From NCBI GenBank assembly GCA_963794325.1, contig CAWCDG010000004.1, forward strand, positions 1,760,001 to 1,824,000: a stretch of DNA of 64,000 nucleotides, written 5' to 3'. The position numbers were made by a program, and so were the translations under genes. Under the pieces are notes generated by a model. That model worked only from the letters and a program-made list of their open reading frames with translations, was not told the DNA's origin and searched no databases. This DNA comes from an uncultured delta proteobacterium. GTDB taxonomy: Bacteria; Desulfobacterota; Binatia; Binatales; Binataceae. Shown here piece by piece: positions 9,677 through 10,650 of this stretch (within the stretch, counting starts at the first letter, position 1; the number at the start of each line of letters is the position of its first letter).

Positions 9677-9705
9677 TTGCGTTGCGGCGCGACGCGAATT
9701 AACCT
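9677..9705 (+). promoter_or_regulatory. Putative sigma70 promoter for the structured leader and Lon-N gene
   Basis: TTGCGT-17 nt-TAACCT. Confidence 0.45.
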
Positions 9706-9710
9706 TGTTG

Positions 9711-9827
9711 ATGGCCGTCAGGCGGCCACCTGTCCGCGGAGAGGGCTAAGCCCACCTCAATTTTGATCGAAACTCATAAACCTTTTCCTTCCCGTTAGCG
9801 GACGCGGGTAAGAGGAAGGGGTTTGTC
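9711..9827 (+). ncRNA. Putative structured cis-regulatory leader RNA
   Basis: Hairpins 9712-9728, 9743-9753 and 9778-9824 (the last covers the RBS); GTCCGC 9732-9737 is complementary to loop GCGGAC 9798-9803. Confidence 0.55.
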
Positions 9828-10650
9828 ATGAGCGCATCGAAAGAGCCGCGCAAACGGCTGCCGCAAAATCCGTCCGAGGAAAATCTCCGCAAACAGGCCA
9901 AGCACTTGGCGAAGGAAGAGGGCGTTCAACTCGCTGCTGCTCAACACCGGCTCGCAATCGAGTACGGCTACCGGAACTGGGCCGAGCTGATGCGGGCCGT
10001 CGCGCCGCGCTTCGTCCCGCTGGTGCCGCTGCGCGAATTGGTGGCGTTCCCGCTCGAGATGTATCCCGTCTATGTCGGCCGGCCGAAGTCCATCAGTGCG
10101 ATCGATGCGGTCGCTGCCGGCTCCCCGATTTTGCTGATAGCGCAACGCGACGCGACGCTCGGAGAGCCTTCAGTCCGACCGACATGTACGAGGTCGGCAC
10201 GCTCGGAGTCATCGTCGAACGGCAGACGCTGCCCGACGGTACGGCGAAAATCATGGTCGAAGGCGAAAGCGTGCGAGAGTCAAACGCTTTCGGTTCGAGA
10301 ACGAGTTTTACAAGGCCGAGGTCGAAGAGGTCGCCGACACCGAGCGCCTCAACTTCACGATTTCGGCACCCGGCGTTATCCATCCCGCCTCCGCGCGCCG
10401 CGAGCACGTGGGCGGCCTGATTCGTTTGGTCCTTTCAGCCTTAAATGACTACGTACTGCGCAAAGGGCAATCCGGGTACGCGTCAGCGATCTCCATGAAA
10501 GAGATCGACGATCCTGGCGTCCTTCCATACATGATTGCGCGCCATCTGAAGATGGAAGTCGCGGAACAGCAGGCCCTGCTCGAAAGCGTCAGTCCCGTTG
10601 AGCGGCTTGAGAAGATCCTCGCCTACCTGAAGGCAGTGAAATCGAATTGA
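9828..10650 (+). CDS. Small helical N-domain fused to a Lon N-terminal (substrate-binding) domain; two frameshifts (~10170, ~10268)
   Basis: LPQNPSEENLRKQAK..LAAAQHRLAIEYGYRNW; then VPLRELVAFP..VGRPKSI, DMYEVGTLG..LPDGTAKIMVEG, IDDPGVL..QQALLESVSPVERLEKI; no AAA+ or protease domain. Confidence 0.75.

Follow-up and report, generated by a model that had tools for sequence, protein, structure and literature searches.

Does the RNA ahead of a Lon N-domain gene in an uncultured delta proteobacterium act as a regulatory leader, and what might read it? The gene lies in the 64,000-nucleotide stretch of DNA analysed here (the window; positions 1,760,001 to 1,824,000 of the forward strand of contig CAWCDG010000004.1, assembly GCA_963794325.1, family Binataceae), for which an earlier note, made from the sequence alone, had described a structured leader RNA joined to a gene that fuses a small helical module to a lone Lon N-terminal domain. 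We find that positions 9712-9827 of the window are a 5′ leader RNA that acts in cis and belongs to a class not catalogued before, and that leaders of this class precede genes whose products begin with the same short module (hereafter, the N-module). It is close to certain that this conserved leader, which sequesters the Shine–Dalgarno (SD) sequence, and its coupling to the N-module are real. Positions below are those of the window, and all features of the leader and its gene are on the forward strand.

Structure and conservation of the leader RNA

The leader comprises three hairpins and a pseudoknot. H1 spans 9712-9728 (UGGCCG at 9712-9717, loop UCAGG, CGGCCA at 9723-9728), followed by a conserved single-stranded core at 9729-9742 that consists of CC-N, the 5′ strand of the pseudoknot (GUCCGC, 9732-9737) and GGAGA. 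H2 occupies 9743-9756, with GGGC at 9743-9746, a UAA loop and GCCC at 9750-9753, and ends in a conserved ACC (9754-9756). A variable linker at 9757-9777, which has low conservation and differs in length in all alignments, leads to H3 (9778-9824). The outer stem of H3 pairs an anti-SD strand, AAACCUUUUCCU (9778-9789), with the SD strand, AGGAAGGGGUUU (9813-9824), and ends 3 nucleotides (nt) before the ATG at 9828; its inner stem pairs CCCG (9791-9794) with CGGG (9805-9808), and its apical loop presents the 3′ strand of the pseudoknot, GCGGAC (9798-9803), complementary to GUCCGC in the core over 6 base pairs (bp). Folding with ViennaRNA returned the same three hairpins at a minimum free energy (MFE) of -49.5 kcal/mol (z = -2.07), with 5 of 200 shuffles equally stable, which suggests that the window fold, taken alone, is modestly better than chance. 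One short-read contig covers 9653-9874 with 1 difference and 0 gaps.

A sigma-70-type promoter lies immediately upstream at 9677-9705 (-35 TTGCGT at 9677-9682, a 17-nt spacer and -10 TAACCT at 9700-9705). Its position predicts transcription from about 9711-9712, that is, from the first base of H1, and the transcript probably starts there. A consensus scan of 9400-10900 for promoters and terminators returned 0 of either; it misses this promoter because TTGCGT agrees with TTGACA at just 3 of 6 positions. We retain the promoter despite the null scan because it is conserved across orthologues and leaders. TTGC of the -35 element and bases T1, A2 and T6 of the -10 element (TAnnnT) are kept in 8 of 8 genus orthologues; across 81 leaders from many phyla, a TAnnnT hexamer begins 7-9 nt 5′ of the start of the RNA model in 61, and a TTG stands about 17 nt further 5′ in many of the 81. 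Promoter, three hairpins, 6-bp pseudoknot and a stem that buries the ribosome-binding site had all been proposed for this locus in the earlier note, and each was found where it had been placed.

Among eight genus members, the 116 nt preceding the ATG are nearly invariant and the sequence farther upstream is unalignable; at this depth the leader pairs show no covariation, as the bases do not vary. The alignment of these eight rows (A1) gave the covariance model R1, and a broader model, R2, was used for distant genomes. Covariation emerged in the alignment of the 81 leaders (A7), which was fitted to a model containing H1, H2 and H3. Standard pairs fill 94.8% of cells in A7. Among 500 shuffles, which give 80.6%, none is as high, and controls with slid partners stand at 40-50%. 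Both-sided changes occur at 26 of 32 pairs. They are found at 6 of 6 pairs in H1 (87.6% of cells paired), at 2 of 4 pairs in H2 (100% of cells paired; for example GGGU/ACCC, GGAC/GUCC and GGGA/UCCC) and at all 11 outer and all 5 inner pairs of H3. The pseudoknot helix is 99.6% paired, though it is absent from the covariance model, and it carries compensatory changes: GUCCGC/GCGGAC becomes AUCCGC/GCGGAU in four sequences and GUCCGU/ACGGAC in one. Across the 81 sequences, the bases of GUCCGC and of the GG..A that follows are 98-100% conserved, save for the first G of GUCCGC, which varies to A together with its pseudoknot partner in five leaders. Conservation of 95-100% extends to most GGG/CCC bases of H2 and to part of the ACC behind it. 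The structured leader of the earlier note, pseudoknot included, is thereby borne out by comparison. Two further pairings were tried and dropped: a seventh pseudoknot pair, for which support was inconsistent, and a pairing, seen by eye, of the H3 loop with the start-codon region, since start regions vary.

In the aligned leaders the outer stem of H3 always pairs a purine-rich SD immediately upstream of the start codon with a U-rich anti-SD (CCUUUUCC or CCUUUCC), G-U pairs included, and the H3 region alone has a mean MFE of -21.9 ± 3.1 kcal/mol (77 leaders). The anti-SD has a second potential partner. In the window, the purine-rich core at 9732-9746 is itself SD-like and complementary to the anti-SD at 9778-9789, so that an alternative fold would free the real SD. 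Pairing of the anti-SD with the conserved core has a mean energy of -10.0 kcal/mol, compared with -12.3 kcal/mol for pairing with the SD; against shuffled cores, the mean z for the core pairing is -2.2, with z < -1.64 in 73% of 60 sequences. Such a switch lies beyond the reach of covariation, because the core does not vary.

Coupling of the leader to the N-module

We tested the association of leader and N-module in both directions; several of our samples were selected via one partner of the pair, and E-values of the models are rough. A protein-pattern scan of one genome per species yielded 67 N-module loci, whose record titles place them in the Alpha- and Gammaproteobacteria, Planctomycetota, Myxococcota, Verrucomicrobiota, Actinomycetota, Acidobacteriota, Eremiobacterota and Binataceae. 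R1 matched RNA upstream of the module, on the coding strand, in 66 of the 67, from at least eight phyla. At locus L119, the RNA lies 410 nt upstream of the module with an unrelated open reading frame (ORF) of 141 amino acids (aa) between them. In 151 Binataceae genomes, a profile of the N-module found 36 full matches and one fragment, and all 36 full matches stand directly at an RNA match. Cultured carriers of the pair include Reyranella soli NBRC 108950, Cerasicoccus frondis NBRC 105381, Kribbella species and Rhodanobacter lindaniclasticus DSM 17932.

Searches that began with the RNA led back to the same module. Within the genus, R1 found the leader in 19 of 47 genomes (21 matches); in the 151 Binataceae genomes it gave 39 matches in 32 genomes, 38 of them preceding N-module genes, with two of the 39 ahead of longer module variants and one a truncated 5′ half. 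Five distant genomes searched with R2 contained seven matches, six directly before N-module genes and one heading a two-gene operon in which the N-module gene comes second. In the order of Reyranella, 33 RNA matches occurred in 32 of 138 genomes, and an N-module ORF was present at 29 of the 29 loci examined, recognized at 25 by regular expression and at 4 by eye (two of these being short, broken ORFs). An exact-pattern scan of metagenome contigs gave at least 120 matches, from which 80 loci were taken; five lay too near a contig end to assess, and 71 of the remaining 75 encode the module downstream (hmmsearch E<1e-3). Two sets of matches were set aside: metagenome locus L241, an apparent chance pattern match within coding sequence, and the matches in genome G022 at L039:1501-1623 (25 bits to R1) and, similarly, at L052, which belong to a different repeated element with a core-like stretch and no N-module gene after it. 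Two unpublished genomes (G024 and G249) are counted in the genus and family tallies, and G024 supplies one of the eight rows of A1 and hence enters R1; neither is in alignments A4, A7 or A9, and none of the claims depends on one of them alone.

The genes behind the leader have little else in common. We surveyed the 72 module representatives of at least 180 aa, which matched 29 Pfam families, 25 of these listed. Ankyrin repeats, which the earlier note had given as an example of the varied C-terminal domains that follow the module, are the commonest cargo (36 of 72), ahead of LON_substr_bdg (11); the rest includes beta-lactamase, IF3_C, Glyoxalase_8, Clp_N, AHSA1, ferric reductase, GST_C, GNAT, LRR and more. 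These functions are unrelated and belong to no common pathway, the N-module being all that the downstream genes share. Variation of this kind is also seen within the genus, where three lower R1 matches (69-81 bits) precede paralogues with the same N-module and a different continuation: Lon N with an inserted alpha C-terminal domain (alpha-CTD) of RpoA, alpha-CTD followed by Lon N, and a GNAT acetyltransferase. In L038:1618-2757 and L040:1615-2649, the alpha-CTD (PF03118; E 8e-21 and 1e-18) sits inside Lon N in one and between module and Lon N in the other. The leader and the N-module stay associated from one cargo type and one phylum to the next, and the portable leader-plus-module unit that the earlier note had suggested is well supported.

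The N-module and possible control of the leader

The N-module is a widespread protein element, with 1888 clusters (50% identity) recovered by its profile at E<=1e-3. Its match begins at or before residue 12 in 140 of 150 representatives listed, in proteins of 55-1221 aa. An AlphaFold2 model made from a 40-row alignment comprises three helices (predicted local distance difference test score, pLDDT, 80.8). Nucleotide identity at codon positions 1, 2 and 3 is 0.70, 0.71 and 0.46 (56 genes), a pattern that indicates selection on the module protein and not on RNA structure in the coding region. The 50-aa segment of the module has a mean net charge of +4 (range 0 to +7), and R21, K22, K25 and R26 in helix 1 are conserved. 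The Pfam-A and NCBIfam libraries searched contain no model of the module's own. Two existing models nonetheless appear, from their alignments, to contain it at their N-terminus: the first ~55 positions of PF20066 (Glyoxalase_8) align weakly with the N-module (E 0.00089 to 0.11), as do those of NF004629 (PRK05973, 'DNA helicase'; E 8e-6 to 2e-4, far below its cut-offs). The window N-module scores 13.0 bits against PF20066 (E 0.11), covering profile positions 5-53 only, and with a gathering score of 23.7 it is not a member; the glyoxalase-like fold of the one model and the helicase-like ATPase of the other are absent from the window protein. Module-only proteins can thus draw weak, misleading 'glyoxalase' or 'DNA helicase' matches through these models. 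Other searches for relatives were negative: the module profile against PDB sequences gave a best E of 0.45, the closest clusters in the ESM Atlas were hypothetical proteins with scores of 0.85-0.86 (guide 0.9), and tblastn of an N-module representative against plasmids gave no match.

What, then, might act on the leader? Our preferred explanation is that the N-module itself would be its ligand, a tentative proposal, nearly balanced, that we place slightly on the doubtful side. We infer that the module may be the reader of the RNA because the genes share nothing else, because searches from the RNA almost never find the leader elsewhere, and because the module is basic and leaves the ribosome ahead of the rest of the protein. 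Autogenous control of the leader by the module is accordingly a possible arrangement, to which we lend just under half our belief. By default, translation would be off or low, the outer stem of H3 burying the ribosome-binding site. H1 and H2 flank the near-invariant purine-rich core, with which the H3 loop forms the 6-bp pseudoknot. On its own mRNA and on those of paralogues, the finished protein would use its N-module to bind the folded 5′ domain with the pseudoknot and would lock the SD-sequestering fold, so that translation would be under autogenous negative feedback. With the core released, the anti-SD would instead pair with the SD-like core (GGRRAGGG) and the real SD would be freed. A core held in the pseudoknotted fold would leave the anti-SD free to close on the SD, and this favours negative feedback as the sign of the control.

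Several observations weigh against this explanation. Some concern the RNA and its genomic distribution. Three metagenome copies (L211, L218 and L247) are 5′ domains without a recognizable N-module gene, and so is a Binataceae copy (L093:1514-1583); such copies, with H1, core and H2 and no H3, may be relics, or the 5′ domain may also serve a separate purpose. A full copy stands 1.8 kb downstream of the Binataceae one, which is equipped with a promoter-like sequence of its own. In Sphingosinicella, the leader at L164 (1501-1631, reverse strand of the locus) is followed first by a 141-aa ORF unrelated to the module and then by the N-module–ankyrin gene, and L170 is a strong N-module gene with no leader, its product identical to P0198 (ferric-reductase cargo). 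The N-module gene at L116, the single exception among the 67 loci, is likewise leaderless, being operon-internal with no room for a leader. Being fitted to its model, alignment A7 leans towards H1, H2 and H3, and relatedness among the sequences makes the counts look more independent than they are. H3 is very stable alone, such that a stabilizing repressor is not obviously needed; an activator, ligand or helicase that opens H3 would fit equally well. Joint inheritance of promoter, leader and 5′ coding part, by duplication with 3′ domain swaps, could give the coupling without physical interaction. Other points concern the module. Its net charge of +4 is weak evidence for RNA binding. Foldseek against the PDB found no neighbour of the module model at E<=0.001 (best 2.7, a weak LuxR/DosR-type helix-turn-helix), and a wide VIA-align search found none at Z >=5 (best 3.7); there is hence no fold-based support for RNA binding. 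Weak structural rows (sigma region 4, TetR and ANTAR domains) were not counted as evidence.

The strongest rival, which we consider rather unlikely, is a riboswitch or another trans-acting factor (a small molecule, ion, small RNA or dedicated protein) that would bind the conserved core and pseudoknot and toggle sequestration of the SD, the N-module proteins then forming its regulon and the module serving some other purpose, such as partner binding, oligomerization or as a degron. The design of the leader is aptamer-like, with a near-invariant junction (GUCCGC-GG..A, ACC) between covarying stems and an SD helix tied in by a pseudoknot; its core is strongly conserved from Actinomycetota to Pseudomonadota, as a universal ligand would predict; the stability of H3 alone would make sense of a factor that opens the fold; and the N-module has no recognizable RNA-binding fold. 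Known riboswitch classes, however, control functionally coherent gene sets, whereas the genes downstream of this leader have no shared pathway and are united by an N-module fused to at least 12 unrelated Pfam families. Nor do copies of the RNA head operons that lack an N-module gene, with few exceptions (38/39, 29/29, 7/7 and 71/75 in the samples above), and we know of no riboswitch class defined by the N-terminal domain of a protein.

A co- or post-translational role, in which the nascent or mature module captures the 5′ domain of its own mRNA to form a ribonucleoprotein for cargo localization or assembly, we regard as improbable. It would account for RNA and module being linked in cis almost without exception, whatever the cargo or phylum, and for a basic module at the extreme N-terminus (140 of the 150 representatives listed), where it leaves the ribosome first. 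The covarying burial of the SD in H3 nevertheless speaks for control at initiation and not for a scaffold, and in the Sphingosinicella operon the leader lies ~400 nt from the module coding region. The last alternative, a factor-independent attenuator or RNA thermometer linked to the module through block inheritance of promoter, leader and 5′ coding part, is about as improbable: the outer stem of H3 does pair a U-rich tract with the SD, G-U pairs included, in resemblance to fourU-type thermometers, and the genus paralogues do look like duplications with replaced 3′ domains, but such a device has no need of a 70-nt 5′ domain, 98-100% conserved unpaired bases or a covarying pseudoknot, and linkage by descent should decay across phyla, where both partners are kept in 66 of 67 loci.

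If the RNA class is as described here, it is a widespread structured RNA, absent from Rfam 15, in Binatota and the other listed phyla, which is marked out in genomes not by a gene family or pathway but by its partner, a short N-terminal protein module. To our knowledge, no described bacterial leader RNA is associated with an N-terminal protein module. Module binding offers a testable hypothesis for two unknowns at once, the function of the module (1888 clusters) and the ligand of an orphan RNA, and carriage by cultured strains makes bench tests feasible. Were the module to bind the RNA, the two would constitute a compact, transferable RNA–protein pair, usable as a synthetic feedback device, and a regulatory RNA and a protein domain would be shuffling together as one evolutionary unit; with the module as ligand, the portable leader–module cassette would be a new concept. 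In its fullest form, this proposal is in our view somewhat less likely than not: the module would be a new kind of RNA-binding domain for the pseudoknotted 5′ domain of its own mRNA, and the block, repeatedly joined to unrelated cargo in at least eight phyla, would provide built-in feedback or a cross-regulating regulon of paralogues.

The window gene and comparison with known systems

At the window locus, residues 1-60 form the N-module (9828-10007), with helices at residues 17-31, 35-45 and 51-58, followed by the Lon N-terminal domain (LON_substr_bdg, PF02190) at 10008-10650, which includes the TGA stop at 10648-10650. The earlier note had described this fusion of a helical module to a lone Lon N domain; its account of the domains stands, with a PF02190 match, subject to the correction that the assembly reads the gene in three frames (9828-~10177, ~10178-10261 and ~10262-10650). 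The three pieces match PF02190 positions 2-58, 59-89 and 90-199 (E 1.3e-8, 2.2e-6 and 2e-14), scoring 35.5, 28.1 and 54.4 bits (cut-off 28.7); L025, an intact orthologue, reaches 138.1 bits (E 4.6e-40) and is a member of the family. Short-read contigs of run X1 have 2 nt missing at 10178 and one additional G following 10261, and either change puts the gene back in frame. The frame is continuous in all 16 orthologues taken from other genomes, of which 15 are full-length (256-280 aa) and the remaining one runs into a contig end after 250 aa. On these grounds we read the gene as intact: the breaks are probably indels introduced by assembly, or no more than a lesion confined to the strain, and the intact product would be a ~270-aa protein in which the Lon N domain follows the N-module. 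Names attached to near-identical proteins place the organism in Candidatus Binatus / Binataceae. Immediately downstream, the ileS gene (10724-13622, forward strand) is also split, into overlapping frames 10724-11911 and 11826-13622, and a contig of run X3 has one base fewer at 11783; this shift and the two in the Lon N gene point to indel errors in the assembly.

Complete orthologues match PF02190 only, with no AAA+ or S16 protease domain, and their scores against the NCBIfam Lon equivalogs (52-105 bits, with cut-offs of 608-891) exclude full-length Lon. The full-length Lon genes of the same genomes match the Lon N part of the query only and lie at other loci. The window protein resembles stand-alone Lon N proteins of PF02190 in that its C-terminal 210 residues cover the full domain with no AAA+ or protease part, and it differs from them in its N-module and dedicated leader. 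Among the neighbours, ileS follows the Lon N gene in 14 genus loci. A cupin gene (9147-9647, reverse strand) is divergent from the leader promoter and adjoins the leader in 8 genus loci, and a 100-aa ORF with no Pfam match (8683-8985, reverse strand) lies between a CoA-transferase III gene and the cupin gene.

Full-text literature searches found no description of the leader–module motif, which supplementary tables may list. In the accessible part of PMC5737381, 'ankyrin', 'N-terminal' and 'autoregulat' do not occur. A motif upstream of proteins with a YndB-like N-terminal domain has been reported (bioRxiv preprint 10.64898/2026.10.21.760802) and, as far as the available portion of that report describes it, is not obviously the same as the present leader. 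The Rfam search proposed in the earlier note revealed no known family on the leader: a cmscan of Rfam 15 over 9000-11000 at E<=10 gave three unrelated weak matches, none within 9677-9830, and seven other leader-bearing loci gave no match on the leader at E<=1.

Three kinds of known leader invite comparison. For fourU and ROSE thermometers a simple SD hairpin suffices, whereas the present motif also has a conserved 5′ domain and a pseudoknot. SAM-II and preQ1-II are pseudoknotted riboswitches that sequester the SD, and the leader resembles them in placing the SD inside a helix of a conserved fold, with a pseudoknot that joins distal parts; it has the aptamer-like fold with covariation and the conserved junction bases of a riboswitch, and it differs in having no Rfam match and in the genes that it precedes, which form no coherent set and have no metabolic theme. 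The third kind is the autogenous leaders of RNA-binding proteins, among them ribosomal-protein leaders, the operator of threonyl-tRNA synthetase and the RNase E leader. Their partners are whole families with a known RNA target, whereas here the partner is a ~60-aa module on at least 12 unrelated cargo domains, its binding is putative, and no cellular RNA that the leader might mimic has been identified. In both, a structured 5′ leader with covarying stems and conserved unpaired bases includes or occludes the SD and goes with one type of protein; the present leader, like autogenous ones, takes the ribosome-binding site into its structure and goes specifically with genes that encode a single protein element.

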